Shown: piece by piece, positions 9,901 to 64,000 of the stretch
How positions within the stretch are numbered: position 1 is the stretch's first letter
Layout of the letters: each line of letters opens with the position of its first letter
Assembly (NCBI GenBank): GCA_965200155.1
Contig: CBDATR010000009.1
Location: 1 to 64,000 of the forward strand
Direction of reading: 5' to 3'
DNA: 64,000 nucleotides
Origin: Nitrosopumilaceae archaeon
GTDB lineage: Archaea > Thermoproteota > Nitrososphaeria > Nitrososphaerales > Nitrosopumilaceae
Program-made: the position numbers and the translations under genes
The notes under the pieces: model-generated
The model's input: only the letters and a program-made list of their open reading frames with translations
Told to the model about the DNA's origin: nothing
The model's database searches: none

Positions 9901-11077
9901 TGGTGGGCAGGAGACAGCCAGTGAAGACAACAAGAATGATTCCCACCCTGCACTTGAGACTCGCATAAAGAACACCTATACGAGTAAGGCGCGTAACGTT
10001 GGCTTCAAGGGAGCCATACTGAACCCAAATAACTCATACATCAAGGCCATTCGTTGGGCATCAGACAGAATCGGGGAATCGGGAGTAATTGGTATTATAA
10101 CACCCTCTGGTTTCATTACCGGGAATAGTGAAGCTGGCATACGCGCCTGTCTTGAAATGGAGTTCACTGATGTGTACTGCTTTGACTTACTAGGCGAGAA
10201 GGGTAGGACAGGTCACGGACGTAACATATTCGAGTACAAGGGTGAGAGTACGGGTGGTACTACAGTTGGTACAGCTATTACCATTCTTGTGAAAAATCAG
10301 GACAAGCAGGGTTGTACCATACGATATTCAAAACTGCAAGAGTCCGACTATTCTGGTGAGGATAAACGGAAACGTGTGAAAGAGTTAGGTTCCATTGCAG
10401 GAATGGAATGGGAGATTATAACACCGGATCGATTCCATGACTGGTTAGAACAGCGTGGTGATACCAGTGAACGATGGGATTCCATCACTCCAATGGGAAG
10501 TAAGGAGGGAAAACGTGGGAAGACCAATGATGTAATGTTTGGAATGTATTCCAGAGGAGTGATAACAAGTAGAGATGATTGGGTATACAACGCATCGCCC
10601 CAAGACCTGGAAGAGAATATGAGACGTACAATAGAGTATTGCTCCAAGCAGGACCTAGATCACTTTGACACAAACGAGAAGGATGTAGCATGGACCCCCA
10701 TAATGGAGAAGAAGATAAGAGATAACGGAAATCCTGAGTTTAATCGGTCCAATATTAGGATATCACTGTATCGTCCATTCATCAAACAATACCTATACTT
10801 GGATTCAACCTTCGTTGAACACGAATATCATATCCCCTCATTCTACCCACACCCAGACTCCAAGAATAATTCTATTATGGTGCCTGACAAGATCAAGGGT
10901 GAGTTCTCCACCATTATAACTGATATCACGCCTGACCTTCACATCCATGAGGCATCCCAGTGCTTTCCCATGAGAGCCAAGAAACAAAAGGACAAGAATA
11001 GACATGTGGTAGGTAGCCAGTCAGCCAGTCAGCCAGTCAGCCAGTCAGCCAGTCAGCCATCGAGAACCTGGCGATAA
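6920..11077 (+). CDS. Type ISP (LlaBIII/LlaGI-like) restriction-modification enzyme: Mrr-type nuclease, SF2 helicase, N6-adenine MTase, start of TRD
   Basis: DTGIDLV..IQCK nuclease motif; MACGTGKT, DEAH and QSIGRVMR helicase motifs; LDPFTGTG and GNPPY MTase motifs; YRPF and PDLH..QCFP TRD motifs. Confidence 0.92.
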   Translation: MVVTFDQALEKIRKETDDETEKGSSVHKTQRGNKFERLMLHYFKNDSIYKNEFKDVKLWYDWFHEQDTGIDLVAEQYDGKLVGIQCKCWNDDSSIALNDISNMFAVKESKKMDRLILVFTGKDVSKHIEQQGGGAFSIIMKSDLRSSAFDWGKKRMISKPKKLRPHQKEAVDKVVTGLKDADRGTLTMACGTGKTITSLHIAENIAGKNGLILYLVPSLSLIPQVMREWAENGSITHQYMAVCSDRSAGSDEQGSITEIPIQPSTDVDTILEQLQSMRNGMRVIFSTYNSVERVGKAIRGMNEIFDLILFDEAHRTTGAEKIKESYYLTAHKDSEVPARKRLYMTATPRVYSGKGNNDATTQGLEVYSMDDVEKYGEVLYDLPFSKAVDIGLLTHFKIIMPEVNEDDAYGEIIKAARDQGGDAKDYEDLELDYMTKVYSICKAITYDDDKFHPLQRVMIFHNTIKKSRLFSGHGRNMDKAKKQLKLDKTTQKILSFDNLSERLLKTDSNLAGYKTVTRHVDGSTNSLSRGERIDWLRNSSPKEIRILSNARCLQEGVDIPALDAVIFMEPKNSPIDIIQSIGRVMRKSDGKESGYVIVPIPVLKGDDPHHVLKMNKRYKQISEILRAILSHDDGLRRLLNMYVLAKSGKGGDHVSPDPGEIPPRLRDWIASTLGKGLSDKLLKDVQNVLLSLGDPSYHSNMGERLGEQAVIIETKLNQRVKIEPETAPIIKVLHENLKPIVGHTLTMEQTIRALSQHAVMSRVFNVMFPRNDNPVASAFDDTIERLNIQESLKKFEAFYAGIQADIERFEEPDAKQDFLRAIYDSFFRGSDRKAADKHGIVHTPVEIVNFILESVRHVLESEFGKTFNDRMVKVLDPFTGTGIFIAQLIERGMIDALRDKYQNDIYANEVMLPAFYVAMSNIEASYQKMTGEYTPFQGISYMDTFAQHPSYRLDSEFRQKQTRITDDNLEEAMERVKRQNMDYVNVIVGNPPYSGGQETASEDNKNDSHPALETRIKNTYTSKARNVGFKGAILNPNNSYIKAIRWASDRIGESGVIGIITPSGFITGNSEAGIRACLEMEFTDVYCFDLLGEKGRTGHGRNIFEYKGESTGGTTVGTAITILVKNQDKQGCTIRYSKLQESDYSGEDKRKRVKELGSIAGMEWEIITPDRFHDWLEQRGDTSERWDSITPMGSKEGKRGKTNDVMFGMYSRGVITSRDDWVYNASPQDLEENMRRTIEYCSKQDLDHFDTNEKDVAWTPIMEKKIRDNGNPEFNRSNIRISLYRPFIKQYLYLDSTFVEHEYHIPSFYPHPDSKNNSIMVPDKIKGEFSTIITDITPDLHIHEASQCFPMRAKKQKDKNRHVVGSQSASQPVSQSASQPSRTWR
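11015..11058 (+). repeat. Simple sequence repeat (AGCCAGTC)5 AGCC
   Basis: Read directly; the ORF stops 19 nt after the repeat. Confidence 0.97.
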
Positions 11078-20128: not shown

Positions 20129-21256
20129 TTTATGTTATAATATGATTATAATATAAATGTCATGTCATGGAATTATACGATAGTCATAAATAGTATGGAG
20201 TAATCAACGGCCATCTGACACTCATATTTAATCGCGTTATGATGGTTTTACTATTCTCTACATTCCAGAAGCCTGGTATGAGTTCACGTGATTAGAAACA
20301 GTCTGGTAGAATAGACCTTATGCGCATGATTGACATCAGGTCGCTCCAAATTGGGGTGGAATGATACCAAGCGTGTGTTACAACCTGATTTTGCTTGAGC
20401 GACCTATATGGATTCATTGAACTGGAATAGCAGTCCCCTTGTTTGTGCAGCCCGGATACTACAATCCGGAATTCATCACGACTACTATCTAGCATGCGGA
20501 TGACATGCTCGATTAATATGCGCGGATATATTTCCTCGTGAGTGATTCTCCGCCTTTGCTCCGGTTAACATTCCATGGTATCTTGTAACTGCTAGGCGTG
20601 GTTGATTTACCCCCACCTGCCGCCAAGGGGAATCGTGTGTTTTCAATCTTGTTTGCTCCCTGATTTCTCTCGGGACGCTGAACATGTATTCTTCAGCCTG
20701 GAACATACTGACTTGATCTATATTACAATGGTATATGTTGGATCATACCCCGCCTTGTAAACTGCATTTGAGTATCACTACCAGCAGCTCCTGTTTTGTA
20801 TTGCGGCGGCAGAAGAGCAGATGCCAAATGGTGTTCACGATCATTTGTAAGATCTAGGAATGCGACACCCCAGAGATTCTACATATTCCTTGAATCTGGC
20901 CAATATTCCGGAGAGCATCTGATCAGCGAATCCGTGCATTCTATGATATTCACTTCAAGTTTGGTGTGCAGGCTTACTTTAACCGTCAATATGAACTTAA
21001 ATCATCCAAATCTAGCCACTGCTCTCCGCTATTCCACATGTACCATGAATTGTTCCCAGGCATAATTGGCCCTGGACTGGAATAGTAGTAGCCCCTCATT
21101 GGGCTACTCTGTAACCCCCTCATTGGGCGGGAATGGTCGCCCCTTTATTTACCGCACCCAATTGGAATCATTCCCGCTCACTGCTACCGCACATTCTAGC
21201 TGGCATTAATTCCGTTATGTGTACTCTGTCGGGACAGGATATACGCCAGCCTTTCT

Positions 21257-21496
21257 GGTTGGACGGCTAGAACAATTTCGTGGCTATGCCACCCCATGGT
21301 TGGACGGCTAGAACAATTTCGTGGCTATGCCACCCCATGGTTGGACGGCTAGAACAATTTCGTGGCTATGCCATCCCGTGGTTGGGCGGCTAGAACAATT
21401 TCATGGCTATGCCATCCCGTGGTTGGGCGGCTAGAACAATTTCATGGCTATGCCATCCCGTGGTTGGGCGGCTAGAACAGACCCGTGGCTATGCCG
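21257..21496. repeat. Tandem 41-bp repeat, ~6 copies
   Basis: Unit ggttggacggctagaacaatttcgtggctatgccaccccat, no spacers. Confidence 0.95.
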
Positions 21497-21557
21497 CACT
21501 CTCATACAAGCCAGGTTGGCATCTGAACGCGTGAGCCAACTTAAACTGAGAAAAAAA

Positions 21558-44443: not shown

Positions 44444-44839
44444 CTTTCCATTAGCGGCGGAATCTAGTCGGACCATAGTGACCTGCACGTCCAGAGTATG
44501 AGAGTACGCTGGATCTTTCCATTAGCGGCGGAATCTAGTCGGACCATAGTGACCTGCACGTCCAGAGTATGAGAGTACGCTGGATCTTTCCATTAGCGGC
44601 GGAATCTAGTCGGACCATAGTGACCTGCACGTCCAGAGTATGAGAGTACGCTGGATCTTTCCATTAGCGGCGGAATCTAGTCTGACCATAGTGACCTGCA
44701 CGTCCAGAGTATGAGAGTACGCTGGATCTTTCCATTAGCGGCGGAATCTAGTCTGACCATAGTAATCTGGTAACTATGGTAGCTTCCCACTTGAACCGCA
44801 ATGTCCATTAGCGGCGGAATCTAGTCTGACCATAGTAAT
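44444..44839. CRISPR. CRISPR-like mini-array: six ~36-bp repeats, a 35-bp spacer x4 and a 37-bp spacer x1; no cas genes in the window
   Basis: Core tccattagcggcggaatctagtc(g/t)gaccatagt at 44447, 44518, 44589, 44660, 44731 and 44804. Confidence 0.55.
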
Positions 44840-51783: not shown

Positions 51784-51845
51784 ATTAATTCCGTTATGTG
51801 TACTCTGTCGGGACAGGATATACGCCAGCCTTACTGTCTTTTGGC

Positions 51846-52168
51846 GATTGGACGGCTAGAACAGACCCGTGGCTATGCCGCCCCATGGTTGGACGGCTAG
51901 AACAGACCCGTGGCTATGCCGCCCCATGGTTGGACGGCTAGAACAGACCCGTGGCTATGCCGCCCCATGGTTGGACGGCTAGAACAGACCCGTGGCTATG
52001 CCGCCCCATGGTTGGACGGCTAGAACAGACCCGTGGCTATGCCGCCCCATGGTTGGGCGGCTAGAACAGACCCGTGGCTATGCCGCCCCATGGTTGGGCG
52101 GCTAGAACAGACCCGTGGCTATGCCGCCCCATGGTTGGGCGGCTAGAACAATTTCGTGGCTATGCCGC
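51846..52168. repeat. Tandem 41-bp repeat, ~8 copies
   Basis: Unit ggttggacggctagaacagacccgtggctatgccgccccat. Confidence 0.95.
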
Positions 52169-52227
52169 ACTCTCATACAAGCCGGGTTGGCATCTGAACG
52201 CGTGAGACAACTTAAACTGAGAAAAAA

Positions 52228-61186: not shown

Positions 61187-61287
61187 GTATGAGTTCACCT
61201 GTGTCTAAATTTACGCACAACTGATGGAACAGGTTGTTCTAGTTAATGTGATTTGTGCACAAGATTCCGGAAGACGTGAACTCATAC
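61187..61287. mobile_element. MITE family 1 (101 bp)
   Basis: TSD ACACTATT. Confidence 0.95.
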
Positions 61288-61470
61288 ACACTATTTCGTC
61301 ATCGCGTACCTCAACTATCACACCTAACAGTATTGAGACAATCTACAGTGTTGCCCATGGATTCTCCCCATCAGGTTTCTTTCCACTTATGTCATGCTAT
61401 AATGTTCCATTCTATGGTTAATGGGTTAACATGAACTGTCCTTTTATTATATCATTACTGAATTAAAATC

Positions 61471-62400
61471 ATGAATCTATTGCTGGCTCTAGCACCACTA
61501 GTGGCCGGTACCGCCCATTCCCAGGAACAAACACCTGATCAGTACATGCTGGAATTGATCAACCATGAAAGAGAAATGGCCGGACTACAGCCAGTTTCAC
61601 TTGGTAATGATATGGCGGCCCAGCAACACGCTGAAAACATGCTGGAACACTGCTACTTATCCCACTGGGGACTGGACTGCATGAAACCGTACATGCGATA
61701 ATGGGACAGGTGTCAACGCCGAGAACTTATCCGGCCTCGACTATTGCATCACTCATGATGACTGGTTCGTTCCCGTATCACCATTCCAGGACTTGGAAGA
61801 GATCATGGATGGTTTCATGAACAGCCCGGGACACCGTGATAACATACTAAACGAGCACCGCACCCATGTCGACCTGGGAATCACACATGATGATTATAAC
61901 ATGAGAGTCGTCCAACACTTTGAGTATAGTTACGTGACATTCACAGAGGCATCCATTAATGGCACCACTCTAACATTGAGCGGTCATTCCATGAGTGTTA
62001 TAGACAGCATCTCATTATATCATGACCCATTACCATACAACCTGACACGAGGACAAGTAGAGAGGACATACTGCTATGACAATGGAGTGATGGTGGCCTC
62101 CATAATACCGCCCCCCGTACCTGGAACAGGAATCAGAGACGTTAATGACACGGTGCCCAGACCCATATGATGTAGAGCGGGACGCCAGCTTCCCAGACAC
62201 CATAACATGGCGGCCGGAATACCATGAGGAACTGGTGATGATTCCCTTCATAGAGGCAGAACAATGGAGGGATGACTTTTCCATTACAGCTGACATCACC
62301 ACTATTGGAGCGGCACGGGCCGGGTGTCTATACCACTCTTCTATACGGGGATGGCATTATAATCGGTCAGGCCACCATTATGGACCCGACTTTTATTGAA
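61471..62400 (+). pseudogene. CAP/SCP-domain secreted protein pseudogene
   Basis: LELIN.ER..GL.P, AQQHAENM..HW, MNSPGHRDNIL; stops and frameshifts. Confidence 0.85.
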
Positions 62401-62507
62401 CGAGTAATCGAGGAAGTAATGGTTTCACTACATTTCATGCCGGAATCCGCCATTCACATGAAGGACAAGACCGAGATTAACATTGACTTGGGTGCAGAAC
62501 GGGTGAG

Positions 62508-62617
62508 GGCGACCATTGCCGGAATGCATCCGGGAATACATGACCCTACAACACGGAAAGAACTCACTCGAGCACCTTTCGGCGACCATTGCCGGAATGC
62601 ATCCGGGAATACATGAC
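62508..62617. repeat. 37-bp perfect direct repeat around a unique 36-bp insert
   Basis: ggcgaccattgccggaatgcatccgggaatacatgac at 62508-62544 and 62581-62617. Confidence 0.95.
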
Positions 62618-62999
62618 TGGGAGCGGTGGGCCAAGAATAGAGCAATCGAGAAAATTATTCTAGGCCGCCGATACATAGAGCCGGAAGGAACAGAGCCATT
62701 CCTGGCCGCCGTTATATTATGCAGGAGAATGAATAACCATAAACTGATAGGCCGGTTCTCACATACAGAAGCACTATACTCTATCCACATGATGCAGGGA
62801 CGAAATGTATACATGACTCCCATATGCCGGGGAGGTATTAGACACAGAACCAGGCAACGATAAAGGTCTGTATACGTTGCATATCTTCCAATATTTACCA
62901 CTGGCGGTAGGCCTTGGAAAGACATGGAAGTTGATAAACCAACATATCGACAGGGGCTTTGTCCATTTGGAGCCGGACAAGTTCCTCAGATTGATGCGG

Positions 63000-63100
63000 G
63001 CATGAGTTCACCTGTGTCTAAATTTACGCACAACTGATGGAACAGGTTGTTCTAGTTAATGTGATTTGTGCACAAGATTCCGGAAGACGTGAACTCATAC
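63000..63100. mobile_element. MITE family 1 (101 bp)
   Basis: TSD TGATGCGG/TGATGCAG. Confidence 0.93.
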
Positions 63101-64000
63101 TGATGCAGGATGCCATTACACAGTACATCAGGAACCGTATTGAGGGAATGACCAGTATACCAGCCATTGTAGTACCAGATGATATTGAAAAGTGGTGCCA
63201 GAACCATAATGAATGGCGACACGCCCCCATGCGTAACAAAGTGCCTTGAAATGATGTCACAGGGCGGGAATTTATCACATTCAGGCCGCTTCCTTGTGGT
63301 CATATATAATCCGAATGCCAGAATCGATATTCCGTGTATTAGTGACCTGTTCCAGGGCGCCCCGGACTATAACAAGAAGATAACAGAGTATCACATCAAC
63401 CAGATAAAGAGGAGTGGTTACAAGGTTTCCCAGCTGCTCCTGGATTCGTTCTAATACATTATGTCCGGGTTGTTCCGCGACACATCCGACAAAATATACA
63501 AAAAACTAGATTGGCGGCTCTCTTCCTTCAAGTATGTCGGTGTATCATCTCGCGGAAGAACAGGCTTCTTGATCGTATCTTTCCTGACTCTACCAGCATG
63601 TCATATTCATACTGCCCCATAATGCAACCACCGGAGTATCTTACTTCCATTATACATAGTGATCAATGTATATAAGTTATATTCATTTGTATTAAATTCA
63701 GGGGAGCTCAAGAACATCATCGGCACAGTGCTTGTGAACCCAGATGTTGGCGGAATTCCTTGTCTACCTTTATCATGTCATCACACTTTATCGCAAAGTG
63801 GGCTTTCATGGTTATATACAGATATATTCTTATTATGGCGCTGTAAAGAAATCAGTACATGTTAAAAAAAGAGTACATGGATCCTGCTGTGTTTCTAGTC
63901 AGTTAGTGATGGAATGATTCACGATTTAGGAGAGATCCTCCTCAATAGGGTAGCCCCAGCTCACGGATTGATGTTTTCAGTGGATTAATGAATATTGAAT

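Follow-up and report, generated by a model that had tools for sequence, protein, structure and literature searches.

Spacer-sized inserts between repeat-sized target duplications in an archaeal genome: probable off-target integration by a type I-G Cas4/Cas1 fusion

Nivala, Shipman and Church reportedly observed in 2018 that over-produced Cas1–Cas2 of the Escherichia coli type I-E system, together with supplied oligonucleotides, leads to off-target integration and to neo-CRISPR units. Off-target Cas1–Cas2 integration in E. coli is also described in work that cites this study, as far as the accessible parts of these papers go (10.1101/148544, PMC7054753, PMC6698737). In the available text of one of them, a preprint, it is stated that the E. 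coli system needs artificial up-regulation, that the evidence from other species is circumstantial and concerns two species, and that it is unclear whether such units commonly arise in nature (10.1101/148544). Non-CRISPR integration in vitro was described for Cas1–Cas2 of Pyrococcus furiosus by Grainy et al. (2019), again according to an incompletely available source (PMC6698737). For Cas4/1 of the Geobacter type I-U/I-G system, the available portion of the report gives TTN for 50% of the unique naive spacers and a predominant spacer length of 36 bp (PMC6547450). A full-text search of the literature, in which most subscription journals and supplements are not included, did not reveal any natural genome for which many such events have been reported.

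We analyzed a stretch of 64,000 nucleotides, here called the window, from a Nitrosopumilaceae archaeon. The window corresponds to positions 1-64000 of contig C9 in a 2.38-Mb draft genome of 51 contigs that is 87.6% complete. The genome encodes an archaeal AmoA (383.6 bits) and its DNA is present in sponge metagenome runs, which indicates a sponge-associated ammonia-oxidizing archaeon. At positions 62508-62617 the window contains a repeat-insert-repeat structure, hereafter the scar. We regard it as very probably the product of an off-target (non-canonical) spacer integration by the type I-G Cas4/Cas1 fusion of the host together with Cas2; the catalysis itself is inferred.

With the E. coli neo-CRISPR units the events in this genome share a spacer-sized insert, a repeat-sized target duplication, a position outside arrays and the gain of further inserts at the same site. 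In contrast to the E. coli work, they are natural and fixed, with 61 of them in one archaeal genome. Instead of the type I-E proteins the host has a Cas4/1 fusion of type I-G, whose ruler is 36 bp long, and half of the inserts have traceable self donors. The likeness to the P. furiosus reaction lies in paired attacks one repeat length apart on opposite strands, here inferred, and in sites with a few conserved bases of the repeat borders and interior. That reaction was carried out on a plasmid in the test tube and had a 30-bp spacing, whereas the events here lie in a natural chromosome, have a 36-bp spacing and show the motif T3 K4 C5, S11 S12 at each end (PMC6698737, available in part). As in canonical I-G (I-U) adaptation, Cas4 and Cas1 are fused, spacers are ~36 bp long and TTN is involved, there in about half of the unique naive spacers (PMC6547450; PMC10504553; both available in part). 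Unlike canonical adaptation, the targets here are ordinary chromosomal sequence, and the chromosome is also the source of about half of the inserts. Events of this kind are already known; new are their natural scale and the completeness of the record, which comprises enzyme, array, donors, empty sites, motif and a control genome. Earlier demonstrations relied on over-produced proteins in E. coli or on test tubes.

Structure of the scar and of the gene it interrupts

A repeat search of the window found GGCGACCATTGCCGGAATGCATCCGGGAATACATGAC twice, with 100% identity and 73 nt from start to start, and 36 nt of unrelated sequence between the two copies (Table 1). The bases beside the copies differ, and 37 nt is therefore the maximal exact repeat; one of these matches may be due to chance, which would leave a real duplication of 36 nt. 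A true length of 36-37 nt equals that of the native 36-nt CRISPR repeat of the host. The 36-nt insert lies within the spacer lengths of the host and is unrelated to its own flanks. In total the scar adds 73 bp (3 × 24 + 1), which results in a frameshift. The upstream frame, ending in ERVRATIAGMHPGIHD, enters the insert and reaches a stop at 62616, and a second frame resumes with ATIAGMHPGIHDWERWAK. The perfect duplication around a unique insert, the gain of 73 bp and the shifted frame had all been claimed in the original prediction and were confirmed by the repeat search and the frames. The two further events it had named at 44.4 kb, with periods of 71 and 73, are present as well, and the 37-nt insert of this neo-array has a donor at C10:414241-414277 (94.6%). 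An Rfam scan of the window gave no matches. Other repeats in the window are two related arrays of a 41-bp tandem repeat (21218-21538 and 51807-52209) and an 8-bp microsatellite (AGCCAGTC) of about six units (11007-11059).

Table 1. Positions of the features discussed, in coordinates of the 64,000-nt window
Feature	Position	Strand	Description
Neo-array, 6 copies of a 36-nt target	44444..44839	.	35-nt insert amplified to 4 units of 71 bp; then a different 37-nt insert, period 73
PriL-like paralogue, dead copy	62419..63509	+	frames 2>3>1>(MITE)>2>3>1 compared with the intact 304-aa copy on C12; target = aa 31-42
Duplicated target, copy 1	62508..62544	.	37 nt maximal exact, true 36-37 nt; encodes ATIAGMHPGIHD of the PriL-like gene
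Spacer-like insert, 36 nt	62545..62580	+	exact copy (100%) of C51:486-521, preceded there (5' flank) by TTT
Duplicated target, copy 2	62581..62617	.	exact repeat of copy 1
MITE, ~100 bp	63002..63100	.	inside the PriL-like pseudogene; absent from the paralogues

The gene that was hit had been taken for priL. This identification did not hold. The PriL-like gene has three copies in the genome (window, C12 and C22), and the copy on C12 is an intact frame of 304 aa with PriL-like domains. Against the PriL profile, which has a cut-off of 439 bits, the pieces in the window scored 22-44 bits and the paralogues on C12 and C22 scored 61+43 bits, so that a full-length family match was not obtained. The best PriL match of the genome is a 368-aa frame on C24 with 192.6 bits. 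Thus, the housekeeping priL lies on C24, and the insertion hit a PriL-like paralogue.

Window positions 61271-63689 share 81-90% nucleotide identity with the paralogous regions on C12 and C22. Both of these have the empty site, with a single target copy and without the insert. It had been proposed that the reading would fall if the insert were native sequence in orthologues; the insert is missing from both paralogues, and orthologues were not found in 30 relatives. The 791-bp scar region was absent from all 30, including 9 of the same genus, and the PriL-like protein had no relative in two public collections (genome contigs and metagenome contigs). Therefore, the comparison is limited to the paralogues.

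Compared with the C12 protein, the copy in the window carries at least four further lesions, namely the MITE and at least three more frameshifts. Therefore, it cannot be shown that the spacer insertion killed the gene, and the first lesion is not identifiable. An approximately 100-bp MITE-like element, also found at 61187-61287, gave 567 BLAST matches of at least 80 nt genome-wide, 69 of them with at least 95% identity.

The junctions between the first repeat and the insert and between the insert and the second repeat were found at flank depth in contigs of three public runs from two studies. These contigs contain 62515-62580 and 62551-62610, and one contig spans 62515-62610. The insert is also covered, at a depth of 1-2, by raw reads from one run of another study. 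No empty allele was listed in the read data, but a 37-nt repeat exceeds the resolving power of contigs built with k=31, and the raw reads reach a depth of only 1-3. Within the limits of these data the event is old enough to be fixed.

Census of similar events and choice of their targets

All contigs were searched by listing every exact direct repeat of at least 18 nt at offsets of 20-400. Outside the array, this gave 91 exact repeats of 35-39 nt (periods 41-400), and 43 of the 91 had periods of 71-75. This is far beyond chance. Within these periods, repeat lengths of 36 nt (17) and 37 nt (19) dominated, and the geometry in excess is that of repeat plus spacer in the host array. When up to two mismatches were allowed, 67 candidates were obtained outside the array. 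Three turned out to be protein tandem repeats or repeats internal to an IS (C10:347755, C10:347832, C9:12517) and were excluded; three others (C13:25654, C24:97241, C51:127) represented copies of one event and were merged. The census resulted in 61 events with mutually unrelated inserts and 49 distinct target sequences. Repeats were 36 nt long in 21 events, 37 nt in 27 and 38-40 nt in 11. The most frequent periods were 72 (25 events) and 73 (18), followed by 74 (8), 75 (6), 71 (3) and 78 (1). Repeat pairs were identical in 48 events; the other 13 had diverged by one base (11) or two bases (2). Inserts measured 32-40 nt and had neither a common sequence nor common termini. The sharp peak predicted at about 72 bp was thus found, at 36-37 nt and 72-74 bp, matching the host array, and the suggestion of a length-measuring mechanism acting at unrelated sites gains support from 61 events of fixed geometry. 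About 0.2 Mb of short contigs (C2-C4, C6, C8, C11, C14-C18, C26-C29 and others) have a GC content of 35-42%, compared with 45-51% in the large contigs; none of the 61 events lies on them, and their origin may be a different one.

For the motif test, both ends of the 36/37-nt targets were pooled (76 ends) without choosing an orientation. Position 3 was T in 38 of the 76 ends, position 4 was G in 34 and T in 23, and position 5 was C in 34. Further inside, G or C occupied position 11 in 63 ends and position 12 in 56, and outside the target T was found at position -3 in only 5 ends. The chi-square p ranged from 2e-3 to 1e-8 over all these positions and from 6e-5 to 1e-8 over positions 3-5, 11 and 12. 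The trinucleotide TGC at positions 3-5 was present in 18 of 98 ends, whereas 300 control trials gave 3.2 on average and 9 at most. A motif search over orientation and offset gave 8.6 bits, compared with 5.6 ± 0.17 in 12 random sets. The native repeat has the ends A-T-T-T-C...C11-C12 and C-C-T-T-C...G11-G12, that is, preferred bases at both. In register, the targets were identical to the native repeat at 13.0 of 36 positions, compared with 11.35 for random sites (p=3e-7). A target consensus resembling the host repeat had been anticipated, and the resemblance does exist in register, albeit weakly; out of register, 4-mers and 5-mers common to targets and native repeat were not in excess (p=0.26 and 0.42). 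The target of the scar itself fits the consensus only at positions 11-12, at both ends. Target choice is loose but not random; the length measured by the enzyme is 36 bp, and a few bases are read at either end.

Other properties of the targets were less informative. A preference for hairpins or palindromes was rejected, with a mean folding energy of -4.97 compared with -4.93 for 3000 random 36-mers (p=0.37). The GC content of the targets (0.487) did not differ from that of random 36-mers (0.469, p=0.18). The central near-palindrome noted earlier in the target of the scar is therefore not a general target property, since targets fold like random 36-mers. Likewise, the string ATTCCG..AATGG, noted as shared with the target at 44.4 kb, lies outside the recovered consensus at positions 3-5 and 11-12 from the ends. 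An apparent enrichment of CATTG/CATTGC had no fixed position and was partly due to repeated hot-spot targets; it was dropped. For some targets, several paralogous copies were struck at the same register, and the insert differed from copy to copy.

As a control, a complete genome of the same genus (G005; 2,214,775 bp) was searched. It has a related I-G module with a Cas4/1 that is 59% identical, and its 36-nt repeat has TTC at positions 3-5 of both ends. Only two clean scars were found, at 586038-586147 and 2004738-2004846, with 36+38 and 37+35 nt. A self donor is lacking for both, and their targets fit the T3-G4-C5 end motif. Thus, the reaction occurs at a low level in this relative and about thirty times more often in the genome studied here.

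Host CRISPR system and origin of the inserts

The host array lies on C9, about 7 kb past the end of the window. An intact type I-G Cas4g/Cas1g fusion of 549 aa is encoded at C9:68770-70419 and matches NF049935 with 710.7 bits over positions 1-546 of 546. It is followed by Cas2 (35.4 bits, cut-off 24.5), a leader of ~130 bp and an array of 288 repeats at C9:71011-92015. The native repeat is ATTTCCGCAGCCTAACGGTTGCGGCCTCATTGAAGG, 36 nt in length. Spacer lengths among the 287 spacers were 37 nt (101), 36 nt (84), 38 nt (63), 35 nt (16) and 39 nt (15). A 36-nt repeat with spacers of 36-38 nt gives periods of 72-74. The Cas4/1 fusion is the only gene of the cas1 family in the assembly.

Beyond the array, on the opposite strand, we found cas3g with an extension protein, csb2 and csb1. 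No Cas8g was found by family searches or by tblastn with the Cas8g2 of G005, and the family controls matched nowhere. The interference module may be incomplete, with the reservation that the Cas8g search had no working family controls. Beside csb1, at C9:97-100 kb (L009 7200-9250), remnants of an IS5-type transposase occupy the place where the Cas8g gene was not found. Genes with the anti-phage-associated domains DUF1156 and DUF499 adjoin the cas genes at C9:100.7-105.8 kb (L009 9253-14303), and the DUF499 gene is split into two frames.

Tracing the inserts to their origin had been suggested as a check, and for the scar the donor was found (Table 1). It lies upstream of a multi-copy transposase gene, and its context is also present in contigs of two runs. 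For the census as a whole, 36 donor rows were obtained, of which 7 were dropped as copies of a whole event or tandem repeats, their match extending across the repeats. Donors in the assembly were thereby assigned to 29 of the 61 inserts; 23 of them are single copy and 22 match at 100%. For the remaining 32 inserts no donor was found in the 87.6%-complete assembly.

The TTT beside the donor of the scar fits TTN, the PAM reported for Geobacter I-G. We found no target of an array spacer in the assembly from which a PAM of this system could be derived. Among the 29 donors, 12 have TTN beside them, six on each side and never on both (expected 5.7, P=0.0085), and 17 lack it. The donors are not evenly spread, as 14 of the 23 single-copy donors lie on C10 (540 kb, 22.7% of the assembly; P=9e-5). 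This contig holds the only orc1/cdc6 gene of the assembly, at 298.7-299.8 kb. GC skew was uninformative for placing the origin or terminus.

In contrast to the off-target inserts, of which 29 of 61 are self-derived, none of the 287 array spacers is. A BLAST search with these spacers gave only two matches outside the array, one a 17-nt chance match and the other a 28-nt overlap with an off-target insert. Self-derived pieces thus seem to persist only off the array. The overlap concerns spacer 58 (C9:75210-75246) and the insert at C25:4760-4868, which share 26-28 nt with a shift of 9-11 nt. We conclude that one foreign sequence, not present in the assembly, was sampled twice, and hence the same machinery seems to feed the array and the off-target sites.

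Proposed reaction, alternatives and consequences

The following course of the reaction is proposed for the scar. The Cas4/1-Cas2 complex would have captured a 36-bp fragment beside TTT from C51:486-521; the copy and the TTT are observed, and the capture is inferred from them. The complex would then have engaged ordinary DNA in the PriL-like gene and not the junction of leader and repeat. From the size of the duplication we infer two strand-transfer attacks on opposite strands, separated by 36-37 bp as on the native repeat. Their chemistry (paired transesterification) is inferred from established work on Cas1-Cas2, as described in the accessible parts of two sources (PMC6698737; PMC10504553), whereas size, empty site, donor, PAM enrichment and motif are direct findings of this analysis. 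Gap filling would leave the 36-37-bp target on both sides of the insert, which is the duplication seen, and the outcome is the observed gain of 73 bp with its frameshift. The same reaction would have taken place at least 61 times, at 49 different targets in the genome. The pseudo-repeats differ from the native repeat, and for this reason guide RNAs are presumably not produced from the inserts. This inference would explain why self inserts survive off the array and not in it.

Template switching can produce X-Y-X structures. A replication or repair accident was therefore considered, in which a distant fragment is copied and the local sequence duplicated through template switching or microhomology-mediated insertion; that half of the inserts copy host DNA agrees with it. 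We consider this very unlikely, because such accidents predict no fixed size, whereas in 61 events the duplication was 36-37 nt and the insert at spacer length. Neither an end motif matching the CRISPR repeat nor an enrichment of TTN beside donors would be expected from them, and G005, a relative of similar size, has only two scars. An unrecognized mobile element, or another integrase (for example casposase-like) with a 36-bp target-site duplication, has just as little in its favor. The genome is rich in mobile DNA, including the MITE with its 567 matches and several IS transposases, but the 61 inserts are only 32-40 nt long and many of them are unique chromosomal sequence. A sequence or termini common to the insertions, as an IS, MITE or other transposon would have, could not be detected, and the single cas1-family gene of the assembly speaks against another integrase.

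The scar might also be a functional mini-CRISPR, that is, a unit transcribed and processed for regulation or self-targeting. Five loci have gained a second, different insert like growing arrays, but the pseudo-repeat is unrelated to the native repeat save for a few positions, and the scar lies inside a dead coding sequence. With only two repeat copies, no leader and this location it did not qualify as a functional array, and in the absence of RNA data we give this explanation even less weight. An artefact of the metagenome-assembled genome, a draft of 51 contigs, is hardly conceivable in view of the junctions found at flank depth in contigs of three runs from two studies, the raw reads of another study and the 13 of 61 repeat pairs that have diverged by one or two bases.

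Off-target integration by Cas4/1-Cas2 remains the preferred reading, and on this basis the effect on genes was evaluated. After in silico removal of the added units, 26 of the 61 sites lay in an open frame of at least 120 aa, compared with 72% of 1500 random 36-mers (p=2e-6). Such a deficit would be expected from the purging of hits in needed genes. In 32 of 61 off-target events and in 101 of 287 array units the period was divisible by three (p=0.014). Eleven of the 13 insertions whose frame stays open have an in-frame period and add 24-25 residues, and of the 26 hits in long open frames at least 12 shift the reading frame. The integrase thus also acts as a mutagen. The earlier proposal that spacer integration is a gene-inactivating mutagen in this genome is upheld insofar as insertions shift frames genome-wide; the gene in the window, with its four or more other lesions, cannot be shown to be an example.

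Some sites were hit repeatedly. The commonest off-target site is the coding region for the N-terminal coiled coil (LASTEKDLAHYK) of a multi-copy transposase of 501 aa. It received five to six different inserts across its copies (L011 3423-4928 on C12, with further copies on C10, C13, C24 and C51), and some of these inserts are in frame and were propagated with the element. Another target was struck three times, and at the five loci mentioned above two different inserts lie between copies of one target. Such multi-unit sites show how new arrays could start. The events are also clustered, with six in the 30 kb upstream of the array (C9:41-71 kb, on the leader/cas4-1/cas2 side), where 0.77 were expected (P=1.5e-4). 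These include the scar, which sits 8.5 kb upstream of the CRISPR leader and 6-8 kb upstream of the adaptation genes. This suggests that DNA near the adaptation genes is preferred as a landing site.

A more general picture can be drawn, which we consider possible but would not yet call probable. Roughly half of the captured fragments would be self DNA, preferentially from the contig with orc1/cdc6, which is presumably origin-proximal. Landing would cluster near the adaptation genes, and sites once hit would be hit again, so that new arrays are born. The true array would be free of self sequence only through autoimmunity, and the scars would be a natural record of I-G capture and landing free of that selection. 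The ratio of self capture, 29 of 61 off the array and 0 of 287 within it, illustrates the cost of autoimmunity. As about sixty natural events are available together with enzyme, array, donors and empty sites, the set also provides an in vivo specificity map of the Cas4/1-Cas2 integrase, with a 36-bp ruler and a symmetric end motif.

Two of the six clustered events lie at the 3' end of cas4/1 itself (C9:70400-70588). There, a target of 37-40 nt, which includes the Cas4/1 stop codon, is present in three copies with two different spacer-sized inserts between them. The two inserts displace cas2 by ~148 bp, and the integrase has thus hit its own operon.
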